The position numbers were made by a program, and so were the translations under genes. From assembly GCA_010671865.1 (NCBI GenBank), contig GCA_010671865.1_4083.1: DNA of 64,000 nucleotides. One strand, written 5' to 3'. The notes beneath the pieces are model-generated. The model saw only the letters and a program-made list of their open reading frames with translations, ran no database searches and had not been told where the DNA came from. Position 1 is the first letter of the stretch, and each line of letters begins with the position of its first letter. This DNA comes from a phage. Shown piece by piece: positions 33,333 to 51,949 of this stretch.

Positions 33333-33453
33333 ACTTTTTTTATTAATAGTTTTCACCCCACCAGCAGATAGTTACTCACCGTTATTAACTATATATTTTA
33401 GATACACTCCTGCACCCAGTGGGCTAGTTTTTGTCTATGCGTATATAATAGCA

Positions 33454-33487
33454 AAGGGACTGACCGGAGTCAATCCCTTTTTTTATT
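33454..33487 (-). terminator. bidirectional intrinsic terminator (repeated element, copy 1)
   Basis: hairpin AAGGGACTGAC-CGGA-GTCAATCCCTT flanked by A-run and T-run; 17 nt downstream of stop of 33496..33696. Confidence 0.55.
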
Positions 33488-35616: not shown

Positions 35617-35717
35617 ACTTTTTATCAAATAGTTTTCAGTACTGAATACTTATATAATAGATACACTTCCGCACCCTATGGGTCAGTGAGTTATCTCTCA
35701 ATGAATATATAATAGCA

Positions 35718-35748
35718 AAGGGACTGACTGGAGTCAATCCCTTTTTTA
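35718..35748 (-). terminator. bidirectional intrinsic terminator (repeated element, copy 2)
   Basis: hairpin AAGGGACTGACTGGAGTCAATCCCTT plus T-run; just downstream of stop of 35756..36340. Confidence 0.55.
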
Positions 35749-37661: not shown

Positions 37662-37760
37662 GGTGTACATCCTATTAGTTAAGTTAATTAGTACTACAAG
37701 TTAGAGTCTATTATAAAGTACTATCTGGGCAATGTCAAATAGTACTTTAAATGGATTCTA

Positions 37761-38084: not shown

Positions 38085-38170
38085 TTTAATTTCTCTCTTT
38101 TTGTTAGGAAGGGAACCATTCCCCTCACTTGATGTAAACTATTATACAGTACTAAGATACTTTGTCAATA
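38085..38170 (-). promoter_or_regulatory. promoter plus leader hairpin cassette
   Basis: TTGACA-16-TATAAT, hairpin GGGGAATGGTTCCC; approximate. Confidence 0.5.
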
Positions 38171-38171
38171 C

Positions 38172-38447
38172 TTAAGTATTGTAAATGTCGTGAATAGTGA
38201 TAAAGTTTTTACGACCGTAAACATGTAAATCAGTATCAATGTAGTGCTTATCAAGTACATCCTCGACGCTTAAAGCCGTGTCGTGAATATCTTCATAGAA
38301 TTGTGGATCTACAATCTTACTTAAATCATCCGGCGTTAACTTATCATTGAGCCATTGCACCGCCTGGATATCTGCATCACGTTTCCAGTCTTCCAGGTTA
38401 GTAGTCAGTACTTGCTCGATTTCGTTAGCTGTCAGTAGAATCCGCAT
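38172..38447 (-). CDS. hypothetical protein
   Basis: 91-aa ORF. Confidence 0.55.
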   Translation of the reverse strand: MRILLTANEIEQVLTTNLEDWKRDADIQAVQWLNDKLTPDDLSKIVDPQFYEDIHDTALSVEDVLDKHYIDTDLHVYGRKNFITIHDIYNT

Positions 38448-38528
38448 TTTAATTTCTCTCTTTGTTAGGTGGGGAACTATTCCCCACTTGATGTAAAATA
38501 TTATACAGTACTAAAAACTATTGTCAAA
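38448..38528 (-). promoter_or_regulatory. promoter plus leader hairpin cassette
   Basis: TTGACA-16-TATAAT, hairpin GTGGGGAATAGTTCCCCAC; approximate. Confidence 0.5.
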
Positions 38529-38536
38529 CTATTTTA

Positions 38537-38737
38537 TCAAATTGTTTCCCATTTCATGTTACCCGCTTTACGCTGTGAAACAGGAATAAACATGTTATTA
38601 ATGTTACTAATATAACCGACCTGTAAGTCACGCTGTGAACCATACGCCCGACTTGCTGCATTTTTAGCACCGCGTTCTGATTTATAAACGCCGCTGGATA
38701 CTGTAAAGCCTACTACACCGAAAGTAAAATGTTTCAT
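38537..38737 (-). CDS. hypothetical protein
   Basis: 66-aa ORF; long leader with tandem promoters. Confidence 0.5.
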   Translation of the reverse strand: MKHFTFGVVGFTVSSGVYKSERGAKNAASRAYGSQRDLQVGYISNINNMFIPVSQRKAGNMKWETI

Positions 38738-39020
38738 TTTGTATTCCTCTTTGTGGTTGATGTAAGTATTATACTCGTTTAATTTCTATTGTCAAACTAT
38801 TTTATCAGGGGAGGTTTTCGTATGTCTTACTCCTGGACTACTTAACGGGGTTACTTATTTCGTTCCCCGTCCTGATGTAAAACATTATACTTGATTCTAA
38901 GTACAATGCAAGTACTTTTTAAAAATAGTTTTCAGTACTTGATAGTACTAGCCACCAGCAAACAATAGATACATTTATGCACCCTGTGGGCTGATTTGTT
39001 TCTATGCGTATATAATAGCA

Positions 39021-39049
39021 AAGGGACTGACCGGAGTCAATCCCTTTTT
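39021..39049 (-). terminator. bidirectional intrinsic terminator (repeated element, copy 3)
   Basis: hairpin AAGGGACTGACCGGAGTCAATCCCTT plus T-run. Confidence 0.55.
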
Positions 39050-39058
39050 CAATTATTT

Positions 39059-39208
39059 TTAAACTTGTTTCGGGTTGCGATAGGTGATAGCGTTCGGGTA
39101 CATTTGTTTAATGTTATTCCATGCCTGGTTAACATTGTAACCACTTGAGCGAATCAGTTGGTTACTACCGACACCTTGAAACACTACTTCGAATAAGAAT
39201 TCTTTCAT
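39059..39208 (-). CDS. hypothetical small protein (49 aa)
   Basis: hand-translated MKEFLFEVVFQGVGSNQLIRSSGYNVNQAWNNIKQMYPNAITYRNPKQV; GAGGTG RBS; approximate. Confidence 0.4.
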   Translation of the reverse strand: MKEFLFEVVFQGVGSNQLIRSSGYNVNQAWNNIKQMYPNAITYRNPKQV

Positions 39209-39378
39209 GCTTTCACCTCGCTATCTGCTTTACCTTTACGCCAGGACATTACTAATTGTTCGCGTTGCCATAAGTCGAGTGATACAAAAAGTTTTGCGGT
39301 ATCACTTTTAGGATACTCGCCAGTAGTACCTAACCGATAAAACAGATCTTTCAGTACTGATAATTCTACTTGAATCAT
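39205..39378 (-). CDS. hypothetical small protein (57 aa)
   Basis: hand-translated MIQVELSVLKDLFYRLGTTGEYPKSDTAKLFVSLDLWQREQLVMSWRKGKADSEVKA; AGGAG RBS; ATGA overlap downstream; approximate. Confidence 0.4.
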   Translation of the reverse strand: MIQVELSVLKDLFYRLGTTGEYPKSDTAKLFVSLDLWQREQLVMSWRKGKADSEVKA

Positions 39379-39467
39379 TTTATTACTCCTGATTGCGTTA
39401 ATACTTCTACTATTGCATGAATGATCATAAGTACAGCTAAAACAATAATCATCGGATTCATTTGCAT
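39375..39467 (-). CDS. hypothetical small hydrophobic peptide (~30 aa)
   Basis: rough hand translation MQMNPMIIVLAVLMIIHAIVEVLTQSGVIK; AGGAG RBS; coordinates and sequence approximate. Confidence 0.3.
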   Translation of the reverse strand: MQMNPMIIVLAVLMIIHAIVEVLTQSGVIK

Positions 39468-39484
39468 AAGCTGTACTCCTTATA

Positions 39485-39697
39485 TTAATCTTTCAGCCAA
39501 TGATCCTGAATGAATTTTTCGCCGGAACCTTGCTGCATTGATTGTAACAGACGTTCACGATGAGCGGCGGCGAATTGCTCAGTACTATGCGTTACGCCAG
39601 GCTGATAACGTGATACCCCATCCGGTCCGATGTATTGTACATCCCACGGTTTTTCGTTAGTATCAGACCATTTACGAACGATTAGTTGACCTTGCAT
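39485..39697 (-). CDS. hypothetical protein
   Basis: 70-aa ORF; GAGGAAAG RBS. Confidence 0.55.
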   Translation of the reverse strand: MQGQLIVRKWSDTNEKPWDVQYIGPDGVSRYQPGVTHSTEQFAAAHRERLLQSMQQGSGEKFIQDHWLKD

Positions 39698-39775
39698 TTT
39701 TCTTTCCTCTCAGTGGGGAGAATCATTTCTCCCCTTCATGTAACTTATTATACAGTACTAGATTATCTTGTCAAT
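39698..39775 (-). promoter_or_regulatory. promoter plus leader hairpin cassette
   Basis: TTGACA-16-TATAAT, hairpin GGGGAGAAATGATTCTCCCC; approximate. Confidence 0.5.
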
Positions 39776-39780
39776 AGTTT

Positions 39781-40104
39781 TTATTCACCTTGTTTGAATT
39801 TAGTTTTCTCCATTGATTCCATGATTGCAACCAATACGCTGTGGATCTCGCTTAACGCGGAATCACTGAAAGCATTAATGAATAGTCGATCATTCTCGCG
39901 AATATTTTTAATGTACTTTTCAGCAGTAGTTGCGAATTCATTCAACGGTAGATCAAATGCTTTATCCCATGATGGATGGCGTAATTGTAACAGTACTGGA
40001 TTATCACGATCACCAGGGGAAAACGTACCAGTGATGAAACATACGCCCGGAATACTTTCGAACTGGCAACGGACTTCCTTTGTGATAGTAGTATGAATGT
40101 ACAT
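39781..40104 (-). CDS. hypothetical protein
   Basis: 107-aa ORF; GAGGA RBS. Confidence 0.55.
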   Translation of the reverse strand: MYIHTTITKEVRCQFESIPGVCFITGTFSPGDRDNPVLLQLRHPSWDKAFDLPLNEFATTAEKYIKNIRENDRLFINAFSDSALSEIHSVLVAIMESMEKTKFKQGE

Positions 40105-40131
40105 TTATTGTTATCCTCTATTAAATTAATA

Positions 40132-40326
40132 TTACAGTTTATGAATCAATTCTTTATCTAAGCGATAGCGTACATTATTAATAGTAACGGCATTGTTTTT
40201 AATGCTACGCTGTACAGGTCCACCAGCAATAACAAATGTTGCTTTATTACCCCGAACAATGATAGCACTTCCAGGATTACCGAAATCATCTTGTACTAAA
40301 ATACTTGATAAGTTTTCCATTTTCAT
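40132..40326 (-). CDS. hypothetical protein
   Basis: 64-aa ORF; true start may be the second Met (MENLSS) by RBS spacing. Confidence 0.5.
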   Translation of the reverse strand: MKMENLSSILVQDDFGNPGSAIIVRGNKATFVIAGGPVQRSIKNNAVTINNVRYRLDKELIHKL

Positions 40327-40401
40327 TTCCTCTTAGTAGGGGAAGATGTTTCCCCTTGATGTAAGTACTATAACACTACTGGATAGTACTGTCAATACTT
40401 T

Positions 40402-40659
40402 TTATCTCATAGATCTATGCCAACAATTACGCGGGGGACGTTTAAAAGTACTATCATGATCCTCCTGGCAAGTTATGCAGTACTTACATCCCTTAACAGC
40501 CCGGCGGCGATTCTCAGGGATTTTATCGCCACAGTCGAGGCAATGTATCAGTGATTCTATTTGTGCGTTAATTTGCTTTCTAGCGTGGTTTACGGCGGCC
40601 TGAATCACTGCGTTAATCTCGTCTTGTTCGGCCCCGTCTTTCGCGAATCCTACAGCCAT
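40402..40659 (-). CDS. DksA/TraR-family C4 zinc-finger protein
   Basis: 85-aa ORF with C-x2-C-x17-C-x2-C and hallmark CLDCGDKIPENRRRAVKG...CITCQ. Confidence 0.6.
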   Translation of the reverse strand: MAVGFAKDGAEQDEINAVIQAAVNHARKQINAQIESLIHCLDCGDKIPENRRRAVKGCKYCITCQEDHDSTFKRPPRNCWHRSMR

Positions 40660-40856
40660 TATTTTAACCTTTTTCTATCATTAATTAATGCTTTCAGTAC
40701 TATACTAATAACTTGCAATGATTCATCAATGACTATAAAATTATTTTCTTTCATTAGATGATAGTTACCATTGATATTATATTCTAACGAGTACTGTTTA
40801 CGTTTAATTTTTGATAATGTTTCTATTTGTTTTTGTACTGATTTCATGCTAATCAT
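40659..40856 (-). CDS. hypothetical protein
   Basis: 65-aa ORF; 1-nt stop/start overlap with 40402..40659. Confidence 0.5.
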   Translation of the reverse strand: MISMKSVQKQIETLSKIKRKQYSLEYNINGNYHLMKENNFIVIDESLQVISIVLKALINDRKRLK

Positions 40857-40961
40857 TGTTAAACGTCCTGTAACGCATTCTAACGAGATAAACGGTTTAG
40901 TACTGGCATTGTATAGGGTAATGAATTAAAGCCCACCAGCGTTAACCAGTGGGCTATAATC

Positions 40962-41105
40962 TTACATCTTGCGGATAATCTTAACAGTATCTTTCACCGA
41001 TTTACCGTTTTGCTGACATTGTTCGATCATCGCGTATTGTTCTGCGGTCAGATCCTCGCCAGTTTTTGCCAGTACTGCATCGATGAATGAATCTAGTGCG
41101 ATCAT
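40962..41105 (-). CDS. hypothetical small protein (~47 aa)
   Basis: rough hand translation MIALDSFIDAVLAKTGEDLTAEQYAMIEQCQQNGKSVKDTVKIIRKM; approximate. Confidence 0.3.
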   Translation of the reverse strand: MIALDSFIDAVLAKTGEDLTAEQYAMIEQCQQNGKSVKDTVKIIRKM

Positions 41106-41204
41106 TTTGTTTCTCTCTTAGGTTAAGTTAACTACTGTTTATAAAACTTATTATACAGTACTATCAAACTATGTCAATATCTTTAATAGTACTGGTAATA
41201 TATT

Positions 41205-41447
41205 TTAGCGGTAGTCGTCGTATGCTTTATTCACCTGTCGAATGTAACTTTCAAAGGCTTCGTCTACCGTTTCATACTCCCGAACATAATCACCATAGGA
41301 AACTACATACATCCCTTTTTGATCTTCAAACGTCATGATGATAGAATCCAGGCCGATGATTTCAGTTTTTGCGATGATAGCCATTTTTAATTCCTTAGTA
41401 GTGTAGTTGATAAAACTTATTATGCCAGTACTATCAATCTTTGTCAA
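41205..41447 (-). CDS. hypothetical protein
   Basis: 80-aa ORF; promoter TTGACA-17-CATAAT without hairpin. Confidence 0.55.
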   Translation of the reverse strand: MTKIDSTGIISFINYTTKELKMAIIAKTEIIGLDSIIMTFEDQKGMYVVSYGDYVREYETVDEAFESYIRQVNKAYDDYR

Positions 41448-41466
41448 TAGTACTGTGATAATATTT

Positions 41467-41679
41467 TTAGTTAATGATAGTCAGTGTAAAATTGTAATCC
41501 CCTGCCTGGTATAGTACTTTGTCGCCGAACGTACCAACACGTTTCATATTGCAATAGATACCCATAACACTTTTTACATCTTTGATATTCCGAACGCCAG
41601 TGATATCCTTGTTGAAATTTTCATGATCAGAAAATAAAACTTGTTTTGCATTTTTCAGTACAGTGCAGATATTAGCCAT
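41467..41679 (-). CDS. hypothetical protein
   Basis: 70-aa ORF. Confidence 0.55.
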   Translation of the reverse strand: MANICTVLKNAKQVLFSDHENFNKDITGVRNIKDVKSVMGIYCNMKRVGTFGDKVLYQAGDYNFTLTIIN

Positions 41680-41762
41680 TTTGTTTTCTCTTTGTTAGTG
41701 GGGAGAATCATTTCTCCCCTTCATGTAACTTATTATACAGTACTATAATCTATTGTCAAACT
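41680..41762 (-). promoter_or_regulatory. promoter plus leader hairpin cassette
   Basis: TTGACA-16-TATAAT, hairpin GGGGAGAAATGATTCTCCCC; approximate. Confidence 0.5.
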
Positions 41763-41773
41763 ATTTTTTAATA

Positions 41774-42115
41774 TTATTCAAAATCTTCTGGACCGGACTG
41801 ATAATCATCTTCACCGTATGCACTTTCTAACTTCTCGCCAGTGTGATCATCAGTTAGTGAGTCATCCTCATAGTTCACGTCTACGCCTACAATGTAAAAC
41901 TGGCTATCGTCTGGATCATTGAAATTAATTTTCTGAATGTTTACAATAACGGTATTGATGCCCAGGACACCGCCATCAGCAGTTACAAAGTACTGATAGT
42001 TTTCACAACCGCCTGAATTGAAACCGTAATTAATTTCGGCCCGACCATCATTTAAACGCAGTACCTGGGCGATGATTTCGTTTTCAAAGTTAGATTGAGC
42101 AATTGAGATAGTCAT
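41774..42115 (-). CDS. hypothetical protein (acidic C-terminus)
   Basis: 113-aa ORF; C-terminal DDHTGEKLESAYGEDDYQSGPEDFE. Confidence 0.55.
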   Translation of the reverse strand: MTISIAQSNFENEIIAQVLRLNDGRAEINYGFNSGGCENYQYFVTADGGVLGINTVIVNIQKINFNDPDDSQFYIVGVDVNYEDDSLTDDHTGEKLESAYGEDDYQSGPEDFE

Positions 42116-42200
42116 GATTCGTTTCCTTATTACCAGGGGAAACCATTTCCCCTTGCGATGTAAAACATTATACGCTTATTGAGATAGTTTGCAAGTACTT
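42116..42200 (-). promoter_or_regulatory. promoter plus leader hairpin cassette
   Basis: TTGCAA-16-TATAAT-GTTTTACATC, hairpin GGGGAAATGGTTTCCCC, then TGGTAATAAGGAAAC RBS; approximate. Confidence 0.5.
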
Positions 42201-42296
42201 TTTAAAAATAGTTTTCAGTACTCAATACTTATATAATAGATACACTTATGCACCCTGTGGGCTAGTGAGCTATCTCTCAATGAATATATAATAGCA

Positions 42297-42327
42297 AAAT
42301 GGCTGACCGGAGTCAACCACTTTTTTT
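42297..42327 (-). terminator. bidirectional intrinsic terminator (repeated element, copy 4, with compensatory stem changes)
   Basis: hairpin TGGCTGAC-CGGA-GTCAACCA plus T-run; stem differs from copies 1-3 by paired substitutions. Confidence 0.55.
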
Positions 42328-42464
42328 CATTTATTTTTAGCTTTTAGAATCGCCGCCTTTCGTGTCATTCCTTGTTTGATGTACTCCTTTACTTTCGCTT
42401 TACGTGCTTTCGCTTTATCTGCTTTCGTTTTAGGAGTACTGTAAATTATACCGTTAGGATTCAT
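42327..42464 (-). CDS. hypothetical small lysine-rich basic protein (45 aa)
   Basis: hand-translated codon by codon: MNPNGIIYSTPKTKADKAKARKAKVKEYIKQGMTRKAAILKAKNK; approximate coordinates. Confidence 0.4.
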   Translation of the reverse strand: MNPNGIIYSTPKTKADKAKARKAKVKEYIKQGMTRKAAILKAKNK

Positions 42465-42554
42465 TTAAATCACCATAAAGAATAGATAGGTTACTAACAA
42501 TGCCGCGATCAATGCACCGACCAGGGCCGAACTGTAATAAGCCAATGATTTCAT
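42465..42554 (-). CDS. hypothetical small hydrophobic peptide (~29 aa)
   Basis: rough hand translation MKSLAYYSSALVGALIAALLVTYLFFMVI; ATGA overlap with upstream ORF; approximate. Confidence 0.3.
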   Translation of the reverse strand: MKSLAYYSSALVGALIAALLVTYLFFMVI

Positions 42555-42703
42555 TTTTTAGCCTGAAAATAGTGTTTAATTTGAGCGGCGGTCAGTGCAC
42601 AATTACGCAGGAAGTTTTCTGTATAACTGCGTCGAGTACTGAAAGAAAATTGACCTTTGCCGTTACCGATAGTAACATCAAACCGAGCATTATATTGTTT
42701 CAT
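42551..42703 (-). CDS. hypothetical small protein (~50 aa)
   Basis: rough hand translation MKQYNARFDVTIGNGKGQFSF...; AGGAG RBS; approximate. Confidence 0.35.
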   Translation of the reverse strand: MKQYNARFDVTIGNGKGQFSFSTRRSYTENFLRNCALTAAQIKHYFQAKK

Positions 42704-42817
42704 TTTGTTTCTCCTGATAGTGGGGAGTACTATTTCTCCCCTTCATGTAAAACATTATACAGTACTGAAAACTAATTGCAAGTATTATTTTTTAGATTTA
42801 CGCAAACTTTCTACCAT

Positions 42818-42931
42818 CTCAGGAGTAAGGCCCGGCGGGTAGGAAACCACTTCATCAACGAAACGTAAAGGGAATACCCCAGCGAAAGGTGAACATGCTT
42901 TCTTAGTATTACTCTTTTTTGATGCTTTCAT
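42818..42931 (-). CDS. hypothetical small protein (~37 aa)
   Basis: hand-translated MKASKKSNTKKACSPFAGVFPLRFVDEVVSLPAGPYS; AAGGAA RBS; own promoter/hairpin; approximate. Confidence 0.3.
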
Positions 42932-43000
42932 TTCATATTCCTTAATTAGTGGGGAGTACTATTTCTCCCCTTCATGTAAAACATTATACAGTACTGAAAA

Positions 43001-43210
43001 CTAATTGCAAGTACTATTTGAAAGTAAATGCTCATACGCTGCATTAACTACATTTTCAATAACCGACTGTACAGAAAGATCCCCCACGTCCTGGCTATAG
43101 TAGAAATTGCTTACAGTGGTGTCATCGTATGCAAATACTTTACCAGGTACGGCATCAATCACATACATATTAACCTTTAAGATGTCGATCTTATCCTGTA
43201 CAGTAAGCAT
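43001..43210 (-). CDS. hypothetical protein
   Basis: 69-aa ORF. Confidence 0.55.
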   Translation of the reverse strand: MLTVQDKIDILKVNMYVIDAVPGKVFAYDDTTVSNFYYSQDVGDLSVQSVIENVVNAAYEHLLSNSTCN

Positions 43211-43215
43211 ATTAA

Positions 43216-43488
43216 TTAACCTTTTAAGTACTGGCTTAAGTAGTCTTTTTGTTCTTCGGTGATTGCAGTCATCTTCCCTAGTACTGGATTGATGATATAA
43301 TCCCCTGTAACGTCCTGTACTGCGTTTTCAGGCTGTTTAACGGCAGGGGTAGCCATAGCCATAGCCTGGACTTGTTCCACACTGTAACGCTCATAAAGGC
43401 GGCATTCTTCCGGTGTTAACATAGCATCAGTACGCTTCATCGGTTTAATGATGCTTTCGATCTCATTCAGTACTTGATTAACGTTCAT
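43216..43488 (-). CDS. hypothetical protein
   Basis: 90-aa ORF. Confidence 0.55.
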   Translation of the reverse strand: MNVNQVLNEIESIIKPMKRTDAMLTPEECRLYERYSVEQVQAMAMATPAVKQPENAVQDVTGDYIINPVLGKMTAITEEQKDYLSQYLKG

Positions 43489-43539
43489 GGTATAATCCCC
43501 AATATAAGCGGCCTAAATCGACCGCTAACGATGTTTTGA

Positions 43540-43809
43540 TTAATAGGTGTATGGTTGACGCTCAAACAATGATTGTACGCTGTACGCCCCGCTAATGGGC
43601 TTCGCTGGTAAATCAATTTTATATTGCTCACGCTTAAAGATAATAAAACGGCAATTGTTTTTAACATCAAAATTGATTGAACGTTCCAGGAGTTTACCAT
43701 CGTGAACAAATACAAGATAACCACTTGGTACTTGTTTTGTAGTACTGGTTGCAACCATAGACCGACGAACATGTGTACCTGCATCGATTAAAGTACTGAT
43801 ATTTTTCAT
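43540..43809 (-). CDS. hypothetical protein
   Basis: 89-aa ORF; preferred over overlapping alternative frame 43485..43784. Confidence 0.5.
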   Translation of the reverse strand: MKNISTLIDAGTHVRRSMVATSTTKQVPSGYLVFVHDGKLLERSINFDVKNNCRFIIFKREQYKIDLPAKPISGAYSVQSLFERQPYTY

Positions 43810-43889
43810 TTTACTTTCCTCTTAAGTTGATTTAATTTCTTTCCCCTATGCAGACACTATATCAAAGTATCTGCATAAAGTAAAGCTAA

Positions 43890-44213
43890 TTAAAGATCTT
43901 TTTTGCGTTTAACATTCTGTACAGTACAATGCAACGGGATATTAAGATCATTGCACAAACGATAGAGGGAGGTTTCAACAGTATCAAGCCCGTCTACTGA
44001 TTCCTTTAAGAGTGATACCGCCGTTTGTTGATATGCATCCTCATAGCCATAAGTAAATGATTCAACCGCCAGATCATTCAAGCCGTTATCCAGTTCAACG
44101 CTTACATGACAAGAATGATAAGTATTGCCATATGAATCAGTCCAACGTTTACCGTCAACATTGATTGCATGGATTGCAGCCAGGGAAACGGTGTTGATGA
44201 TAGTTTTAGCCAT
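43890..44213 (-). CDS. hypothetical protein (paralog of 37761..38084)
   Basis: 107-aa ORF; shares RWTDSYGNTYHSC...FTYGY...KRKKDL. Confidence 0.6.
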   Translation of the reverse strand: MAKTIINTVSLAAIHAINVDGKRWTDSYGNTYHSCHVSVELDNGLNDLAVESFTYGYEDAYQQTAVSLLKESVDGLDTVETSLYRLCNDLNIPLHCTVQNVKRKKDL

Positions 44214-44299
44214 TTTAGTATTCCTTAAATTAATATGTGTCGTCTTGATAAAATCTATTATGCCAGTACTATCAAACTATGTCAATAGTACTGTGATAA

Positions 44300-44448
44300 T
44301 ATTTTTTACTTACTTTTTGCTTTCTTTGCTGCTTCCACCTGGTCGGCCCATTCTTTACCCCATACTTGTAAATTATAATGGTACTGGCAAAGTGCAACGC
44401 CCCGCTTTAAACCCGTAATAGATTTCTGACCACATTGACAAGTTTTCA
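44300..44448 (-). CDS. hypothetical small Cys-containing protein (~47 aa)
   Basis: rough hand translation MKTCQCGQKSITGLKRGVALCQYHYNLQVWGKEWADQVEAAKKAKSK; approximate. Confidence 0.3.
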
Positions 44449-44534
44449 TATTAGTTTCCTTGTAGTGGGGAGAATCATTTCTCCCCTTGATGTAATGTAT
44501 TATACTTTATTCGATTTACTTTGCAAGTACTTTT

Positions 44535-44762
44535 TTAATTTAATTCATCCAGGCAAAGGATACGTTCCACACCAAGATCCGTTAAACTAATGGTCGGTAC
44601 TTGATAGGTTTCAATGTATGCTACACTTGCCCACTGACCGAACTCATTAACGGCCCAGGTATTCATTGCATTTTGCAATTCCACACCTTCCTTGTTGGTA
44701 ATGACTGCAACTACTTGTTCGTTGCCAGTAGTACCAGATACGCGAGTAATGATAATAGCCAT
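44535..44762 (-). CDS. hypothetical protein
   Basis: 75-aa ORF; promoter TTGACA-17-CATAAT. Confidence 0.55.
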   Translation of the reverse strand: MAIIITRVSGTTGNEQVVAVITNKEGVELQNAMNTWAVNEFGQWASVAYIETYQVPTISLTDLGVERILCLDELN

Positions 44763-44837
44763 TTTTTAATTCCTATTCAGTAGTTGATGTATGTATTATG
44801 TCAGTACTTAAAACTATTGTCAAACTATTTTTTAAAG

Positions 44838-44985
44838 TTTATCAATGATTGATGCCGTTTCATTGATAGTCTTGCCGTGTTTTGCACACGCGATAACTGC
44901 TTTAAATTCCTTTGATGACCAATCTTTCTTGCTGCATACTGACATTACTTGTAAAGTAAAACAATCCAGTTCATAAGTATTCATC
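44838..44985 (-). CDS. hypothetical small protein (~49 aa)
   Basis: rough hand translation MNTYELDCFTLQVMSVCSKKDWSSKEFKAVIACAKHGKTINETASIIDKL; approximate. Confidence 0.3.
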
Positions 44986-45209
44986 TTTAAATCCTCAGTT
45001 AGTTAAGGTGTCTCGCCTTGATGTAATTAATTATACGCTAATCTCTTAATCGTGCAAGTACTTTTTATTACTTTTTGCAAAATACTTTAAACGCTCTCAA
45101 TCGCATTCTAACGGCCTTCACGCCACCAGCTAGGGCAATGCATCAGATAATCAGTTTAATGCGTTAGAATCGATTCTATCGGGTGCTAGTGGACTGGTAA
45201 ACGATAGAT

Positions 45210-45238
45210 ACAAAAAAGCCCACTGTTTAAGGTGGGCT
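45210..45238 (-). terminator. intrinsic terminator
   Basis: minus strand AGCCCACCTTAAACAGTGGGCT hairpin followed by TTTTTTG; downstream of 45260..45742. Confidence 0.6.
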
Positions 45239-45259
45239 AGTGATTCAGTACTTTAATTG

Positions 45260-45742
45260 TTATGCTTCAACTTTGCGATGAGCTTCGATCCATTCCTCGC
45301 GAGTCATACCGCTTTCTTTGATAGCGTCCAGTACTACCGCAATGCAGTTACCGCGTACAGGAATCATATGTTCTTCCCCGTTATCAAGTACTACAGTAAC
45401 ACGTTCTTGAATCCATTTTTTAGGTTTAGATTCTGGCTTATCTTCACCATACTTAACCGCCAGGGCTTTATGTGCCATTTCTACAACTACTTCCAGATCC
45501 AATCCAGACACCGCCGCCTGGATACTTTCGATTGTTGCTTGTAGTTCTGCTTCACGGGCTTTTTTCTGTTCTTCCAGTTCTGCTACCTTTTTGGCTTGCA
45601 GTTCTTTAGCTTCACTGTACGCAATGTTAAAATTGTTGCGTACTGCTTTCATGGTATCGTTATCCAGGTCAGCCAACAATTCAGCAGCAATAACAGTATC
45701 GTTTGAAATCAGTGCTTTCAGGAATGATTTTACATTAGCCAT
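45260..45742 (-). CDS. hypothetical protein with predicted coiled-coil segment
   Basis: track ORF trimmed to MANVKSF (GAGGA RBS); heptad-like KELQAKKVAELEEQKKAREAELQATIESIQAA. Confidence 0.55.
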   Translation of the reverse strand: MANVKSFLKALISNDTVIAAELLADLDNDTMKAVRNNFNIAYSEAKELQAKKVAELEEQKKAREAELQATIESIQAAVSGLDLEVVVEMAHKALAVKYGEDKPESKPKKWIQERVTVVLDNGEEHMIPVRGNCIAVVLDAIKESGMTREEWIEAHRKVEA

Positions 45743-45939
45743 TTTATAAATCCTCAATTAAAGTTTAGTTTACGTTTATTAGTGTATCAAAGTTTTATCG
45801 ACGTGTCCAGTTTTTCGTTCGACTTACTGGCGGTCTACTTAGTGCTCCCCGTCTTGATGTAATACATTCTACGCCTTTTTGTGGTAATGTCAACTACTAT
45901 TTTAAAACTATTTTTAAAGTATGCAGTACTACGATACTA

Positions 45940-45973
45940 CAAAAACAAAAAAGCCCACTGTTTAAGGTGGGCT
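45940..45973 (-). terminator. intrinsic terminator (same hairpin sequence as 45210..45238)
   Basis: identical AGCCCACtgtttaaGGTGGGCT hairpin with A/T runs; downstream of 45991..46290. Confidence 0.6.
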
Positions 45974-45990
45974 AGTGATTCAGTACTATA

Positions 45991-46290
45991 TTATAAACAG
46001 TTAATTACTCCGGTGTGCGTTACTTTCTCAGTATCCATAACAGTGACCGAACCGCGTTTAGTACTTGCATCGTAATAAATTGTCGTGCTACCTTTTTCGT
46101 CTTCTTCATGGAACGGCCCGTTTTTAAATGCTTCTGGCTGGATCTCTAAATCCTTTAAAACAATCTCGCCAGTACTTTCATTGGTCATCGCTACAGTGCA
46201 CTGAATGAATTTTTCACTACTTACATCTAACGACGCATTAACAGCGAAAGAGGAAACAGATAAAGCCAGGGCGATGATTGCAACTTTCAT
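45991..46290 (-). CDS. hypothetical secreted/periplasmic protein
   Basis: 99-aa ORF; N-terminal signal-peptide-like MKVAIIALALSVSSFAVNA with A-x-A cleavage context. Confidence 0.5.
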   Translation of the reverse strand: MKVAIIALALSVSSFAVNASLDVSSEKFIQCTVAMTNESTGEIVLKDLEIQPEAFKNGPFHEEDEKGSTTIYYDASTKRGSVTVMDTEKVTHTGVINCL

Positions 46291-46375
46291 TAGTATATCC
46301 TTAGTTACCAGGGGGGAACCGCTCCCCCTTGCGATGTAAAATATTGTACAGTACTAAAAACTAATTGCAAGTACT
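46291..46375 (-). promoter_or_regulatory. promoter plus leader hairpin cassette
   Basis: TTGCAA-16-TGTACAATAT, hairpin GGGGGAGCGGTTCCCCCC then TGGTAACTAAGGA RBS; approximate. Confidence 0.45.
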
Positions 46376-46612
46376 TTATGATTTTTTATAAAACATTTCG
46401 GCAGTGATATTTTTACCCGTTGGTTGTACTTTATCCAGAATTTTTTGATGCCCTGGCCGTCCAAATGAATATGATCCGTAAACCGTAAACCAGTAGTTAC
46501 CCTCAGTGTTTACATGTACAGCACAATAGGGAACGCCCCGCGATTCATCACTAGTAAAGTGTGCTACCGTTCCCGTTACATTCGAAGACGTTGATTTGAT
46601 TTGTTCGACCAT
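46376..46612 (-). CDS. hypothetical protein
   Basis: 78-aa ORF. Confidence 0.55.
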   Translation of the reverse strand: MVEQIKSTSSNVTGTVAHFTSDESRGVPYCAVHVNTEGNYWFTVYGSYSFGRPGHQKILDKVQPTGKNITAEMFYKKS

Positions 46613-46720
46613 TTTCTTATTCCTTAGTTACCAGGGGAACCGCTCCCCCTATGCAAAACATTATACGCGTTTAAAAACTAATTGCAAGTATTTTAATAAA
46701 AAGTATTTGAAAAATAATTG

Positions 46721-46749
46721 TTGACAAGTGCATCCAGTACTGGCATAAT
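46721..46749 (+). promoter_or_regulatory. candidate plus-strand promoter (antisense or small-RNA transcript)
   Basis: TTGACA-17 nt-CATAAT on plus strand in a minus-strand gene region; a palindromic hairpin lies ~80 nt downstream. Confidence 0.4.
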
Positions 46750-46819
46750 TACTACATCAAGACGAAACAGTCACTAACCCACCGGGTGCCGAGATCCGTC
46801 TATTAAATGATTCAGTACT

Positions 46820-46848
46820 GAAAAAAGAAAGGGGATCAATTGATCCCC
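46820..46848. terminator. bidirectional terminator (perfect palindrome)
   Basis: GGGGATCAATTGATCCCC flanked by A-run and T-rich run; downstream of minus gene 46855..47076. Confidence 0.55.
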
Positions 46849-46854
46849 TCGTTG

Positions 46855-47076
46855 TTATTTTGTAAGGTATAAACAGAAGTCACCTTTATTTGCTACGCCG
46901 CCAGTGTAACGCGAGGAATAGTTAGAAACGTCCTGGACTTCTGCTATTACCAGGGTATCATCATTCAATTCGTCGCAGAAGCAAACGGCTGGATCTTGTA
47001 CGCCGATTTTGTCGGCATGTTCCCGCATAGATTTAACCAGTGCTTCCAGTTGGGAAAGAGTAGTGATATTAGCCAT
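46855..47076 (-). CDS. hypothetical protein
   Basis: track ORF trimmed to MANITTL (GAGGAAA RBS). Confidence 0.55.
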   Translation of the reverse strand: MANITTLSQLEALVKSMREHADKIGVQDPAVCFCDELNDDTLVIAEVQDVSNYSSRYTGGVANKGDFCLYLTK

Positions 47077-47160
47077 TTTATTTTCCTCATTACCAGGGAG
47101 AACCATTTCTCCCTTGATGTAAACTATTATACAGTACTGAAAACTAATTGCAAGTACTTT
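47077..47160 (-). promoter_or_regulatory. promoter plus leader hairpin cassette
   Basis: TTGCAA-16-TATAAT, hairpin GGGAGAAATGGTTCTCCC then TGGTAATGAGGAAA RBS; approximate. Confidence 0.5.
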
Positions 47161-47161
47161 T

Positions 47162-47422
47162 TCAATATTGTTTGTCGTCGTCTTCCTCGATGAATTGACC
47201 GACGAAATGATCTACTTTCGCTTTGAGGCTTTTATAATCTTCTTCTACTTCCGTTAAACGTTCCTGGTAGTATTCCAGTGCCTCAAGATACGCCGCCTCA
47301 GCAGTTTTTGCACGCATAGCTAAATTCATTCCACGCGTTTCATCAAATAGCCAATAACCATCGGTGCAATGACTGATAGATAATGACTTGCTTAGTACTG
47401 TATAGTTAATTACTTTACTCAT
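47162..47422 (-). CDS. hypothetical protein
   Basis: track ORF trimmed to MSKVINY; upstream part reads through the leader hairpin. Confidence 0.5.
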   Translation of the reverse strand: MSKVINYTVLSKSLSISHCTDGYWLFDETRGMNLAMRAKTAEAAYLEALEYYQERLTEVEEDYKSLKAKVDHFVGQFIEEDDDKQY

Positions 47423-47480
47423 TAGATAAACCCTCAATAAAGGCGGGAACCATTCCCCGCCATTGTTACAGTACTGAATA

Positions 47481-47720
47481 TTACATTCCAACCATTGCAG
47501 CACGGATCGCAGTAGTGCTATACTTAAAGCCGTCCGGCGTTGTAGTAGTACCGTTGGCTTTTAATCTGCGGTACATGCATTCCGCTGCAATATCTTTAGT
47601 TCTACTTTGTGCGATACAACTTTGTGCAAGCCGATACAATGACTCACCGTTATTAATCCATAAGGAAACATTCCAATGAGTTTTGTTTTTGTGCCCGTTG
47701 TAAGTTTTAGTACTAGCCAT
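47481..47720 (-). CDS. hypothetical protein (mosaic paralog of 49523..49762)
   Basis: 79-aa ORF; conserved GHKNKTHWNVSLWINN and TPDGFKYSTTAIRAAMVGM termini, divergent centre. Confidence 0.6.
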   Translation of the reverse strand: MASTKTYNGHKNKTHWNVSLWINNGESLYRLAQSCIAQSRTKDIAAECMYRRLKANGTTTTPDGFKYSTTAIRAAMVGM

Positions 47721-47812
47721 TTTTTTTAATCCTCGTTTGAGCGGGGAACCATTCCCCGCCTCGATATAAAGTATTATACGCTTTTAAACTTAGTTTGCAA
47801 GTACTTTTTAAA

Positions 47813-48424
47813 TTAATATTCGATTGATTCTACTACACCATCAATGACATTGAATTGATATTCGTTACCCTCAATCAGTGCCGTAATGTTTTCAGTAGTG
47901 AATTGATCCTCATATGCATTCTCTAAATCACGGTACAACTTGCGGGATAATTCACGAATAGTTTCAGTGAGTAGTTCCTCAAGCTCATTAACTAACGTTT
48001 CTTGTTTTGCGGTTAAATCAGTGTAAGCCGATTCAATGTACCCGCTTACAGTATTCTCATGCGAGTAGTGGGAGTGAGAACGCTTTACACTCATCGGCAA
48101 ATCATCTTCATTCAGCAGGTGACGGATTGAGCGATACTTAGTTAATGCTCTTACCTTGCGTAAAAACTTCACTGCGTCAACGTGGTCAGTACTGATTGAT
48201 GCACCGTCACCCTGGGACCAAAAACCACTGAATTGTATTTCAGCGTCATTAATGCCATATTCCGGCAATACTGTTTCTTTATAGTGTTCAATTTCACTTT
48301 CAGAAAAATAATCGTCGTTTGAGTTTTTTTCACGTTCCCGAACTAGTTCGATAGCTGACGTTTTTTGTTCTGCGTTCAATTCAGAAAAAGCCATAACATA
48401 AGTAGTAGTAGTGATAGTTTTCAT
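47813..48424 (-). CDS. hypothetical protein
   Basis: 203-aa ORF; GAGGG RBS; long leader with tandem promoters. Confidence 0.55.
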   Translation of the reverse strand: MKTITTTTYVMAFSELNAEQKTSAIELVREREKNSNDDYFSESEIEHYKETVLPEYGINDAEIQFSGFWSQGDGASISTDHVDAVKFLRKVRALTKYRSIRHLLNEDDLPMSVKRSHSHYSHENTVSGYIESAYTDLTAKQETLVNELEELLTETIRELSRKLYRDLENAYEDQFTTENITALIEGNEYQFNVIDGVVESIEY

Positions 48425-48647
48425 TTTGTAACCCTCATTCAGTAGTTTATGTAAGTATTATACGCTTTTAAAAACAATTGTCAAACTATTTTATCAGGGG
48501 AGTTTTTCGTGTGCCTTACTCCTGGGCTACTTAACGGGAAGTTACTTATTTCGTTCCCCGTCCTGATGTAAAACATTATACGCCTTTAAACATAGTTTGC
48601 AAGTACTTTTTAAAAATAGTTTTCAGTACTGAATAGTAAAAAAAAGT

Positions 48648-48676
48648 ATTGACAGCATTATCAAGTACTGGCATAA
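48648..48676 (+). promoter_or_regulatory. candidate plus-strand promoter
   Basis: TTGACA-17 nt-CATAAT on plus strand; same AGTACTGGCATAAT core as 46721..46749. Confidence 0.4.
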
Positions 48677-48851
48677 TATACCCCATGACAACAGCTAACC
48701 CACCGGGTGCACAATTGTAACTATACTAAACTACTTTTTCTATAGATACACTCCCGCACCCTATGGGCTACGGCTTATCTGCCAATGAATACATTATGCC
48801 AGTACTGACAAAATAAGTCAATACCGGCAATTGTAAAGATTTGTAAACTGC

Positions 48852-49082
48852 TTATACTGCAATCGCGTCCAGGCTATAATAATAATAAGTGCCGTATTGG
48901 TGTACTTTATTACCTTTTATTTCAGTACTGAATGAATCCGAACGGTTTGCATATGATGTTAATTTAAAGTACTTTGATTTGCTGATACGTTGCCATACAC
49001 CGCAGATCCGCTGTAAGTAAGTAGTTTTATTCGTGGTAGTATCTTTTACGGTTTTAACTTCAGTCATATACATATTAGTCAT
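48852..49082 (-). CDS. hypothetical protein
   Basis: 76-aa ORF. Confidence 0.5.
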   Translation of the reverse strand: MTNMYMTEVKTVKDTTTNKTTYLQRICGVWQRISKSKYFKLTSYANRSDSFSTEIKGNKVHQYGTYYYYSLDAIAV

Positions 49083-49169
49083 TTTTATTACTCCAGGTTA
49101 TAGGCGGGAAGTGTTCCCGCTCTCGATGTAAAACATTATACGCCATTAAACATAGTTTGCAAGTACTTT

Positions 49170-49436
49170 TTATTCAAGTACTGCAATCTTTTTAGTACGG
49201 TACACGGTCACGCGGTTGCCCTTTCGGTCGAGCTTTATTTCTACCACTCGACGCGATACACTATCGGGACTTTTTAACGCCGCTAACCAGTACTGTAATG
49301 ATCTGGCGGTACTACGCTTTACAATGGCCCAACGTTCACCACTTGCCGATCCCGCTCCCATATCTTTAAACGTTGCCCCGTCCTGGCGTGCGGCGATCCG
49401 AGCTTGTTCACGCGTCGCAAAATACTTAATATTCAT
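49170..49436 (-). CDS. hypothetical protein (paralog of 37266..37661)
   Basis: track ORF trimmed to MNIKYFATREQ; shares FATREQARI...FKDMG...DRKGNRVTVY. Confidence 0.55.
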   Translation of the reverse strand: MNIKYFATREQARIAARQDGATFKDMGAGSASGERWAIVKRSTARSLQYWLAALKSPDSVSRRVVEIKLDRKGNRVTVYRTKKIAVLE

Positions 49437-49522
49437 GCTGTTACCCTTATCGTTGGTGTATGAATAAAACACTATTATAAAGTACTATCGCAAAAAAATG
49501 ATAGTACTTTAAATAAATTCTA

Positions 49523-49762
49523 TTACATTCCAACCATCGCCGCACGGATCGCAGTAGTGCTATATTTGAATCCGTCCGGTGTTTTATCTTGTCCAGTCTG
49601 TTCTAAAAATAGCATCATATGACGGGCCGCATCATTGCGATTTGTGCTATCGTTAATAAAGTCCTGGGCCAACCGGTATAATGATTCATCGTTATTAATC
49701 CAAAGGCTTACATTCCAATGAGTTTTGTTTTTGTGACCTAAGAACATTTTTGATTTAGCCAT
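49523..49762 (-). CDS. hypothetical protein (mosaic paralog of 47481..47720)
   Basis: 79-aa ORF; identical C-terminal 19 aa and conserved N-terminal block. Confidence 0.6.
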   Translation of the reverse strand: MAKSKMFLGHKNKTHWNVSLWINNDESLYRLAQDFINDSTNRNDAARHMMLFLEQTGQDKTPDGFKYSTTAIRAAMVGM

Positions 49763-49857
49763 TTTTTTTTAATCCTCTTATATAGTGGGGAACTATTCCC
49801 CACCTGATAGAAAGTATTATACGCCTTTAAACTTACTTTGCAAGTACTTTATTAAAC

Positions 49858-50220
49858 TTATTCGTAAATCTTGCCACTGTCAGCCCATACCAGGAAACGA
49901 GGCATATTATCCCATGCATCTTGTTTTAAGTTTAAGCCGTGCAATACTTCTGTACTTTCCATTCCTGGTACTGGCTTGCTATACACTGCAAACATTTCGC
50001 CCATGTACTGATAAGCCATCGTTAAATCAGTCTGGATCATCTTATGGATCATTGCATCCAGCATTGCAGTAGCGGCGTACTGTTCACGCTTAAGCGGCAA
50101 CATTGCAATAAGTTCCCGATAAGCTGAAATGTGAATTTTTACCGTTTCTGCCGGAAGATCTTTCATCTCGTCGCGGAAGTTAACCAGGTTAGCAATAATT
50201 TTATTGATTTGAGTCGCCAT
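49858..50220 (-). CDS. hypothetical protein
   Basis: track ORF trimmed to MATQINK; upstream MFYIESG is promoter/hairpin read-through. Confidence 0.55.
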   Translation of the reverse strand: MATQINKIIANLVNFRDEMKDLPAETVKIHISAYRELIAMLPLKREQYAATAMLDAMIHKMIQTDLTMAYQYMGEMFAVYSKPVPGMESTEVLHGLNLKQDAWDNMPRFLVWADSGKIYE

Positions 50221-50300
50221 CGTTTTAATCTCTCTTAATGTGTAGCGGGAAGTGTTCCCGCTCTCGATGTAAAACATTATACGCTTTTAAACATAGTTTG
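50221..50300 (-). promoter_or_regulatory. promoter plus leader hairpin cassette
   Basis: TTGCAA-16-TATAAT-GTTTTACATC, hairpin GAGCGGGAACACTTCCCGC; approximate. Confidence 0.5.
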
Positions 50301-50557
50301 CAAGTACTTTCTACATGTACTTTTAAAATAGTTTTCTTTCTATATAGGAGTACTATTATTCAGTACTACCAACAACCAGGGGAACTATCTTTCAGTACTG
50401 AATCAACCAAATCACTACTACACCCCATAAAACGGCCTCAGACGCATTCTAACGCATTAATACACCTAAGCTATACATTTGCACCGCCACCAGCTAACCA
50501 GGGCTTTACAGACCGTTTAAACGCGTTAAATTATTTTCAATTATTTTGTTTTTAGCT

Positions 50558-50586
50558 ATTGACTCAGTACTAAAAAAGCGTATAAT
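50558..50586 (+). promoter_or_regulatory. candidate plus-strand promoter
   Basis: TTGACT-17 nt-TATAAT; downstream transcript start resembles that after 46721..46749 (TACTACAT-GACG-GA-AG...CCGAGATCCGTC). Confidence 0.4.
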
Positions 50587-51022
50587 TACTACATAGACGC
50601 GAGAAAGCGGATACCCCAGGGGGTGCCGAGATCCGTCCAAAATTCATAAAATTTAAAAAGAATACACTCCCGCACCCTAGCAGGTCAACGCACTTTCTCA
50701 GTACTGAATTATAGTACCATAGTACGGCCCAGGATAGCAAGCAAATTAATTAAAACTTTTTTCATCCAGGGTATTGCTTTATTTTTCCAGTACTGTATAA
50801 TAGTTCCATCAAGTCGAGAAAGACTCCAGCCCACCGGGTGCATAGTTACGCCCAAAATTCAGTACTGAAAAAATTTTTAAAAATATCCGTCCAGGCCGTT
50901 GACATTGCCCCCAGTTTATAAGATAATGATTCCAGATTCAGAAAAATCTAACTCCAGATACTGCGGGGAAACTATCCCCACGCGGTAGGGGAACTATTGG
51001 AAAAAACAAAATAAAATTTTGA

Positions 51023-51097
51023 TTTAGCCGTTTAGCCGTCCAAACGTCTAGCCATCCAGAAATCTAGCCGTTTAGCCGTCTAGATGGATAGCCATCT
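51023..51097. repeat. tandem octamer direct repeats (iteron-like), unit yTAGCCrT
   Basis: TTAGCCGT TTAGCCGT CCAAACGT CTAGCCAT CCAGAAAT CTAGCCGT TTAGCCGT CTAGATGG ATAGCCAT in strict 8-bp register. Confidence 0.6.
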
Positions 51098-51722
51098 TTA
51101 CTTCCAGACTTCTGGAGGGCTAGACATATCTACGTCCAAAATCCATCCAGGGTAACTACGCCCAAAATCCGTCAGTACTATACCATAGATCTATCTTTTG
51201 AAAGGGAGTATTCAGTACTGCCATCATAGCCCTCACTATGTTACCCTAGGAGGATGAAGACTATCATGTAGTACTGAATACTGTTAGAGGGAACCCACCA
51301 GCACAAGCTGGTGGCATAATGATTTAGATTAAAATCAGTACTGACACCATTCTGTTAATATCAGTACTGTTATTACGATTTTCATATGAGGTTCAAAAAG
51401 ATGTACCACCACAGGAGGAACTATCTTTTCTGTACTGTCTCACGACAGGAGGTAGAGTAAATGAATTGTTCGCAGCAACTCATCACCCTATGTAGAACAT
51501 TATACAGTACTGAATCATAATGTCAATAGCTTTCTTTCATTATTCAGTACTGATATTCTTGAGAACTACCCGACTACAAACATCATTATATCCCACAAAT
51601 CATAAACGTCCCAACGTAAATTTCAACTTTCGAAGATCCAACTTTTATTTCATAGGTACTCCAAAATTTTTAGGATCGAGATTTAGGATGGAGTACTAAC
51701 CAACTTTTTGCTGGAGCCTCAA

Positions 51723-51743
51723 GGGGTAATGGAATTTTACCCC
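51723..51743. repeat. hairpin GGGGTAA-tggaatt-TTACCCC followed by GGGTAA repeats
   Basis: 7-bp perfect inverted repeat; GGGTAAAGGGGTAATTGAAATT downstream. Confidence 0.45.
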
Positions 51744-51949
51744 GAAGGGTAAAGGGGTAATTGAAATTAAGGTGAAAGTAATAATTCAGTACTAATCATT
51801 GCGTGATTACTTTTGATTACATTTGATGTAATTTGCAAAATGGAAAAGGAGCTTGGAAACTACAAAGTACGGCAGACTTCCTCTGCCTACTTAGTGGCAT
51901 ATCAGTACTGCTACGTTCTTGATTAAACGTGAACATTCCTGTACTCTAG

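Follow-up and report, generated by a model that had tools for sequence, protein, structure and literature searches.

Why would a phage place near-consensus promoters so that they read against all the genes around them? The question arises at position 46721 of the stretch of phage DNA that we analyzed (64,000 nucleotides, called the window here), in an intergenic gap (46613-46854) with a small leftward gene on either side. All genes from window position 1 to about 56,500 point leftward, and the promoters proposed from the sequence at 46721, 48648, and 50558 lie on the plus strand, so they do oppose the surrounding genes. The original prediction took them for sources of antisense or small RNAs. 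By its sequence, the window can be assigned to a jumbo coliphage of the Asteriusvirus type: 41 phage records match the 801 bases around the flagged site at 92-98% identity, and all of them are Escherichia coli or Salmonella jumbo phages of the 121Q/PBECO4/G17/phAPEC6 type, genus Asteriusvirus. The closest record, vB_Ec-M-J, has an annotated direct terminal repeat (DTR) of 21,525 bp, and its position 1 is window position 51891 in reverse orientation. From this correspondence, the DTR equivalent should span about 31,990-51,891, and the plus strand of the window should face the physical left end of the genome. The flagged region lies inside this equivalent of the ~21-kb DTR.

The terminal repeat has several features of its own. 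There are several intrinsic terminators between its small genes, including two identical ones, AGCCCACCTTAAACAGTGGGCT, at 45217-45238 and 45952-45973, and non-coding repeats (cgcattctaacg, gccaccagcta) are common to 44985-45259 and 50400-50500. Almost every small DTR gene is preceded by what we call a class A cassette, in which AAAAAGTAC and TTGCAA-16-TATAAT are followed by a 5' UTR with a GC-rich hairpin and by a Shine-Dalgarno sequence. There are 11-13 copies of this cassette in 41696-51535 (e.g., 46651-46701 and 47090-47162). The E. coli Chi sequence GCTGGTGG occurs 11 times in the window, for 0.52 expected, always in the DTR equivalent (33358-51314). Ten copies are on the minus (gene) strand; the eleventh, at 51307 on the plus strand, is paired in inverted orientation with the one at 51295, at a distance of about 590 bp from the physical left end. 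This array may provide oriented protection of the linear ends against RecBCD.

Are the opposing promoters real? A consensus promoter scan found TTGACA-17-CATAAT at 46721 on the plus strand (46721-46749, score 11/12), just as proposed. The other two exist with small corrections: the TTGACA-17-CATAAT placed at 48648 is off by one and occupies 48649-48677, and the promoter placed at 50558 with a 17-bp spacer is TTGACT-16-TATAAT, at 50559-50586, with a spacer of 16 bp. All three score 11/12 and have sigma-70 (RpoD) hexamers with a spacer in the 16-18 bp range, and those at 46721 and 48649 carry a TG extension two bases 5' of the -10 box. The plus strand of the DTR equivalent (31990-51891) has four promoters scoring at least 11/12, whereas 200 dinucleotide shuffles gave 0.53 +/- 0.79 (highest shuffle count, 5). 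Chance promoters were rejected on this comparison of 4 sites with 0.53 expected. We therefore regard the three sites as genuine host sigma-70 promoters in their sequence, and we infer that transcription starts from them. We found no transcriptome of this phage group in the literature; the papers on CBB and related phages report RpoD-like promoters and no transcribed motif. The original prediction missed a fourth plus-strand unit, with its -10 box at 50796-50801, as well as five minus-strand units, including a twin that converges with the 48649 unit.

What these promoters share extends into the DNA that follows them. Each is part of what we call a class B cassette, a near-consensus sigma-70 promoter fused to a predicted RNA leader of about 50 nt, and these cassettes form an undescribed family. 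The real signature of the family is CCACNGGGTGC. Its plus-strand occurrences are at 46779, 48700, and 50831 (plus a variant at 50616), and its minus-strand occurrences are at 33412, 35671, 38979, 42250, and 48756. Every copy in the window is 20-27 nt after a -10 box. The invariant motif, CCCAYNGGGTGC, has 14 window matches at no more than 2 mismatches, compared with 2.6 expected. The motifs that had been noticed in common between the 46721 and 50558 units were recovered as well: TACTACAT follows the -10 box in both the 46721 and the 50559 units, and the window has just two occurrences of CCGAGATCCGTC, at 46789 and 50626. In total, the window has nine copies, of which the plus strand carries four and the minus strand five (Table 1).

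Table 1. Positions and composition of the class B units in the window
Feature	Position	Strand	Promoter and predicted start	Leader and surroundings
U1, class B promoter	46721..46749	+	-35 TTGACA 46721-26; 17-bp spacer with CAGTACTG; TG-extended -10 CATAAT 46744-49	
U1, predicted RNA of ~100 nt	46756..46861	+	from the A of the invariant CAT	to the T-rich tail after the hairpin
U1, hairpin 1	46761..46772	+		GAC-GAAACA-GUC; 5 nt from the predicted 5' end; family covariation
U1, hairpin 2 and GC	46777..46789	+		A-CCC-ACC-GGG-U-GC; invariant core of the family
CAGTACTG palindrome	46813..46820	+		AGTACTG invariant between leader and terminator in all solo units
Bidirectional terminator hairpin	46830..46849	both		common to leftward gene 46855-47106 and U1
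U2	48649..48726	+	promoter 48649-48677; predicted start A48685	core 12-mer 48699-48710; no clear hairpin 1
Convergent twin of U2	48740..48821	-	TTGACT-17-CATAAT 48821-48793; predicted start A48786	hairpin 1 UGGC-AGAUAA-GCCG; core 48767-48756
U3	50559..50642	+	TTGACT-16-TATAAT; predicted start A50593	hairpin 1 CGC-GAGAAA-GCG; variant core CCCCAGGGGGTGC, then CCGAGATCCGTC
U4	50774..50867	+	TTGCTT-16-TATAAT; predicted start A50808	hairpin 1 AGUC-GAGAAA-GACU; core 50830-41; CAGTACTG 50860-67
Co-oriented unit	42234..42323	-	-35 TTGACT (42316-11) within upstream-gene terminator hairpin 42323-42296; -10 TATTAT	leader 42289-42234; class A gene promoter next
Co-oriented unit	38963..39040	-	-35 box 39040-35 within terminator-like hairpin	Chi site 38959-52 next
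Co-oriented unit	35655..35737	-	-35 box 35737-32	hairpin 1 UGAG-AGAUAA-CUCA
Co-oriented unit	33396..33473	-	-35 box 33473-68	

The covariance-model search that had been suggested as a check was run with a model built from seven copies, counting hits at E < 0.05, and gave 57 copies in six phages of three genera. Besides the window, the search covered the DTR, or the region corresponding to it, in each of five phages: vB_Ec-M-J, EJP2, the Klebsiella phages Muenster and K64-1 (Alcyoneusvirus), and the Pectobacterium phage CBB (Mimasvirus). All five show this arrangement. Regular expressions and the covariance model together found 9 copies in the window, 10 in vB_Ec-M-J, 7 in EJP2, 9 in Muenster, 10 in K64-1, and 12 in CBB. 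Rak2-like jumbo phages have about 9-13 copies per terminal repeat, and all family copies are in or adjoining DTRs; the covariance model found no copy in the window outside 33.4-50.9 kb. A promoter-less 12-mer, CCCACTGGGTGC, is present at the Muenster end (also listed: L006 25153), and none is present at the vB_Ec-M-J end. In IMG/VR, all matches of an exact-pattern scan for the motif came from jumbo-phage contigs (345-378 kb) or a few metagenome fragments, at one or two loci per genome. The E. coli genomes had no copy of the cassette, and neither did 185,579 bacterial and archaeal species genomes have a confirmed one by exact-pattern scan, which is narrower than the covariance model. An origin in the host or in prophages was rejected, since the lone pattern match among these species genomes was discarded by the covariance model. 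Rfam 15 gave no match at gathering thresholds over the whole window and only noise at E up to 5 in 46.5-52 kb, and ARAGORN found no tRNA or tmRNA genes. Hence, the small family of noncoding transcripts that had been proposed does exist as a family, but it is larger, occupies both strands, and consists of predicted transcripts.

Is the conserved part of the cassette an RNA structure? All 57 copies have a TTGAC-like -35 box and, at a constant distance, a -10 box; an invariant CAT comes next, and its A is at the expected position of the transcription start. The predicted RNA begins with AU and 0-3 nt, such that hairpin 1 starts 2-5 nt in. This hairpin has a stem of 3-5 bp and a purine-rich loop of 6-8 nt (AGAUAA, AGAACAA, GAGAAA, GCGAAA), and a linker of 3-5 nt separates it from hairpin 2, (R)CCC-N3-4-GGG(U), after which come GC, five variable nucleotides, and the semi-conserved UGUAUCUA or a variant of it. 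In a model-guided alignment, where helices are short (3-5 bp) and orthologous, non-independent copies are included, helix 1 shows compensatory changes in 4/4 pairs. Pairing reaches 90.8% of cells, against 20-52% when the partner column is slid, and the covariation score of 0.361, compared with 0.122 in shuffles, was exceeded in 0/500 of them. A second alignment, likewise fitted to the model, of 35 copies from other phages and metagenome contigs gave 91.9% paired cells and a covariation of 0.437 versus 0.158. A model-free positional test detected a hairpin of at least 3 bp in 34/47 distinct copies, in 21 different combinations of stem and loop; shuffles gave 12.7 +/- 2.9. Helix 2 varies little: its CCC/GGG pairs are invariant, and the closing pair is G-U in some copies and A-U in others. 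A single compensatory change to U-A is found in CBB, and rare copies have a compensatory CCU/AGG change or a 4-nt loop. The wobble pairs and the fixed orientation relative to the promoter indicate that it is the sense strand, i.e., the RNA, that would fold. Folded singly, the sequences show no significant gain in stability over shuffles (z between -0.1 and -2.0; U1, z = -1.57), and the minimum-energy fold of U1 replaces hairpin 1 by an alternative outer stem (AGACG/CGUCU).

Other structures and resemblances were considered and set aside. A pseudoknot between the loop of hairpin 1 and a downstream UGUAUCU was rejected, with 67% of cells paired and 2/5 positions mostly unpaired. An outer stem around the core (AGAYR/YRUCU) can be seen in some copies, but it is missing in K64-1 and CBB and is therefore not a feature of the family. 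Compared by eye, the leader gave no convincing match to a Racr CRISPR-repeat mimic, the ops/RfaH site, the consensus pause element, or parts of RNase P RNA and tmRNA.

The unit at 46721 (U1) has the clearest gene-like layout. Its start site, A46756, was placed by its distance to the -10 box. The perfect palindrome that had been described at the end of the unit is indeed there: GGGGATCAATTGATCCCC, of 18 nt, at 46831-48, ~95 nt from this predicted start. It is contained in a hairpin that is annotated as a terminator in G17 and would serve both strands. Since the U-tract is good on the minus strand and interrupted on the plus strand, the palindrome is probably, in the first place, the terminator of the opposing gene 46855-47106, and termination of U1 may be leaky (CUCGUUGUUAUUUU). 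In K64-1, Muenster, and other solo homologues, the plus-strand U-tract is clean. In vB_Ec-M-J, which is 98% identical to the window, the palindrome is swapped for GGGGAG...CUCCCC at the same position; thus, what counts is a hairpin structure and not a sequence-specific palindrome. The U1 RNA contains no ORF longer than 4 codons, and a role as a small peptide was rejected: the sole ORF, the 4-codon ATGATTCAGTACTGA, is not retained by the Klebsiella homologue. With its own promoter, no ORF, and a hairpin terminator ~100 nt downstream, U1 looks like a stand-alone gene for a non-coding RNA of ~100 nt, as predicted from these elements. The whole unit is kept in the Klebsiella phages K64-1 and Muenster at 70-82% identity (BLAST), and its conservation extends beyond that of the flanks with structure-preserving changes, as expected of an sRNA gene. 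Homologues in another phage genus have the same anatomy, with terminator stems of different sequence. The small-RNA candidate has its own promoter, a candidate terminator, and conservation across genera, with the reservation that the terminator is primarily that of the opposing gene. The promoter of U1 and the class A promoter that serves the next gene (46687-46660) are arranged back-to-back, and the unit covers just the terminator and 3' UTR of gene 46855-47106, so that overlap with its coding region would need read-through.

The CAGTACTG of U1 belongs to a palindrome that is not restricted to the cassettes. AGTACT occurs 258 times in the whole window, for ~20 expected, and CAGTACTG occurs 55 times, for 0.75. 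Coding and non-coding DNA both contain such sites; some immediately precede the -10 box, within promoter spacers, and others lie a short way 5' of class A -35 boxes (examples of the type are at 46735, 46813, 50788, and 50860). They are missing from ~16-24 kb and 27-32 kb. The core of the palindrome equals that of the E. coli SlmA-binding site.

Across the family, the cassettes occur in three contexts: co-oriented with the genes, inverted and solo, or in convergent pairs. The co-oriented copies (33396, 35655, 38963, and 42234, all minus) have their -35 box within the terminator hairpin of the upstream gene, and between their leader and the class A gene promoter that follows are an AU-rich spacer, CAGTACTG, and an A-rich stretch. 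As these copies have no terminator, the production of short RNAs cannot be the whole story. Directly upstream of the cassette at 42234-42323 there is a 45-aa ORF (42327-42464, minus) with a net charge of +12, possibly a nucleic-acid-binding peptide. In the inverted solo unit U1, the leader is followed by an AU-rich spacer, CAGTACTG, an A-run, and then the hairpin that also terminates gene 46855-47106. At least six phages contribute to the 13 solo units, whose extracted lengths are 96-106 nt; each unit has the invariant AGTACTG, the A-run, and a GC hairpin, and six different stem sequences are found overall. In the convergent pair 48649/48821, the predicted starts are ~100 nt apart and the predicted RNAs overlap by ~100 nt; since the two face each other, each RNA would carry the 12-mer and, downstream, its complement. 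Such pairs are also found in vB_Ec-M-J, EJP2, Muenster, and K64-1, and CBB has three, so that they span three genera. The 48649 unit is half of such a pair and not a lone gene. Nor is antisense orientation a mark of the family: 5/9 copies in the window, and more than half of the 57, point with the genes as upstream leaders. The interpretation as small RNAs is supported in part, because the promoters form a real family and the solo layout of U1 is kept in Klebsiella phages.

The two units U3 (50559) and U4 (50774) are in the 1.76-kb non-coding head of the genome and are aimed at its physical end. The same head contains an array with an 8-bp period at 51022-51109 (TTTAGCCG / TCTAGCCG / TCCAAACG and similar), downstream of a plus-strand TTGACA-17-GATAAT promoter at 50899 that is without the family leader. 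This array looks like iterons and may relate to replication or packaging.

What could such a cassette do? The explanation that we favor, and to which we give an even chance, is a role at the level of RNA, in which the 5' domain is a handle for a protein or RNA polymerase and the inverted and convergent copies produce short, abundant, insulating ncRNAs. The terminal repeat is the home of the early, host-takeover genes, and its intergenic gaps have cassettes in either orientation. A co-oriented cassette would restart transcription inside the upstream terminator and supply a structured 5' leader. An inverted cassette, such as that of 46721, would fire head-on against the end of the preceding operon and stop ~100 nt on, at the shared terminator, and at 48649 two cassettes would face each other. 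The 5' domain of the RNA would be the functional part, putatively the binding handle for a protein or RNA polymerase, and the inverted copies could yield abundant short ncRNAs, antisense to terminator read-through, that insulate neighboring early transcription units. We infer the transcription, the 5' and 3' ends, the binding partner, and the insulating effect in this scheme from the promoters, the family, its covarying structure, and the solo-gene anatomy, which are observed here together with their conservation.

Known phage RNAs offer partial precedents for such transcripts. The lambda OOP RNA is a 77-nt antisense RNA opposite the cII-O region. Like U1, as predicted, it is a short constitutive sigma-70 transcript that runs against the surrounding operon, ends at an intrinsic terminator, and is complementary to the 3' end or the read-through of the opposing mRNA. 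Unlike OOP, U1 has an overlap with the opposing gene that is limited to its terminator and 3' UTR, and it belongs to a multi-copy family with a conserved 5' domain, many members of which are not antisense. The DTR of the Pseudomonas jumbo phage PA5oct, a distant relative, encodes ncRNA001 and ncRNA002, which are abundant in RNA-seq, measure 236 and 451 nt, and are co-oriented with the genes (PMC7318152). They resemble the predicted class B transcripts in being non-coding and in coming from the long terminal repeat of a related jumbo phage. The covariance model and a motif search found no copy of the cassette in the PA5oct DTR, and homology with its ncRNAs was rejected.

The leader could also act as a promoter-coupled functional RNA of another kind, a possibility that we hold only tentatively. 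It could, as HK022 put does, reprogram the RNA polymerase of the host at its exit from a special subclass of early promoters, or it could be a decoy, with the invariant, multi-copy CCC-N3-GGGUGC hairpin capturing a conserved enterobacterial or phage protein during host takeover and the inverted and convergent copies supplying the RNA in trans. Another possibility, which seems to us quite improbable, is that the leader is a cis signal for processive antitermination like lambda nut or HK022 put: the transcribed leader, alone or with a small phage protein, would make polymerase resist the DTR terminators, and the inverted copies would give short terminated RNAs at first and later long antisense transcripts that silence early genes. 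Lambda nut consists of boxA (consensus CGCUCUU(U)A) and boxB, a 5-bp stem with a GNRA-like pentaloop bound by the arginine-rich N protein. As in nut and put, the class B element is a sense-strand RNA element close to an early promoter (always within ~50 nt of a strong one), with a small hairpin with a purine-rich loop (GAGAAA, GCGAAA, AGAACAA) and a conserved motif that are loosely like boxB and boxA; the restart of transcription inside a terminator by co-oriented copies and the several intrinsic terminators between small DTR genes would also suit antitermination. However, neither boxA, by the above consensus, nor a boxA-like sequence is in any aligned copy, the geometry differs (stems of 3-5 bp and loops of 6-8 nt), and there are 9-13 copies per repeat instead of two. 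No Rfam antitermination family matched, and no DTR ORF has an N-terminal arginine-rich motif; the search for an N-like protein in the DTR found none convincing, and the very basic 45-aa ORF at 42327-42464 is only a lead. Furthermore, the 13 solo units, in several genera, keep a conserved terminator ~20 nt after the leader, which would be odd for an element that makes polymerase ignore terminators.

A different view, unlikely in our judgment, is that these are mobile promoter-terminator modules, spread and inverted by recombination, in which the leader merely stabilizes the 5' ends of early mRNAs and the inverted and convergent copies are tolerated by-products without a function of their own. 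A 5' stem-loop protects RNA against 5'-end-dependent decay, and a hairpin 1 that starts 2-5 nt from the predicted 5' end would fit this. The model for such modules is the PeSL cassette of T4-like phages, a terminator stem-loop with a sigma-70-like early promoter (PMC2839356, Arbiol et al. 2010; PMC4122927, Comeau et al. 2014). Both families are composites of a terminator stem-loop and a near-consensus sigma-70 early promoter, repeated between small ORFan early genes, and both are associated with indels between close relatives; here, a 316-bp indel that includes one cassette separates vB_Ec-M-J from the window. The co-oriented copies have precisely the PeSL form (e.g., hairpin 42323-42296 with its -35 box), whereas the inverted solo copies lack it. 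The class B promoter also leads into a conserved, covarying, structured leader with an invariant 12-mer, occurs in both orientations, solo and terminated or convergent, and is confined to the long terminal repeat, while PeSLs are defined by DNA repeats and not by RNA structure. Against by-products, the solo layout (length, AGTACTG, and terminator) has survived between genera, at 70-82% identity, next to flanks that diverge, and three genera have convergent pairs. Almost every copy has the same 12-mer core, an invariance that neither a stabilizer nor a recombination repeat needs, and recombination repeats should retain sequence identity rather than show covarying stems. The invariance of this core across hosts and genera could instead mean that the RNA is functionless and that the 12-mer, CCCAYNGGGTGC, acts as an operator in double-stranded DNA, where a phage or host protein, bound at about +22 to +33, blocks elongation from these strong promoters. 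The promoter-less CCCACTGGGTGC within 30 bp of the PhageTerm-predicted left end of Muenster (positions 17-29) would agree with this, as would the use of DNA words by these genomes, exemplified by AGTACT at 258 occurrences against 20 expected. We consider an operator very improbable, as the motif is no true DNA palindrome (CCCA..GGGT needs G-T pairing at the alternating A/G closing position), its orientation relative to the promoter is fixed in 57/57 copies, the adjacent helix 1 covaries as a single-stranded fold would, and the loop changes from 3 to 4 nt with the stem kept.

In sum, we classify the cassettes as phage early promoter-terminator cassettes that include a conserved structured RNA. 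Rak2-like jumbo phages depend on the host RNA polymerase and have their host-takeover genes in a terminal repeat of ~20 kb. The promoter-fused RNA module, conserved across phages of E. coli, Klebsiella, and Pectobacterium, is a concrete entry to the layout of early transcription in these repeats. With it come transcription units that can be tested, an RNA that may bind a protein, and a covariance model for annotating these phages. If it acts in antitermination or as a decoy RNA, it would be a new regulatory device in jumbo phages that are candidates for therapy.
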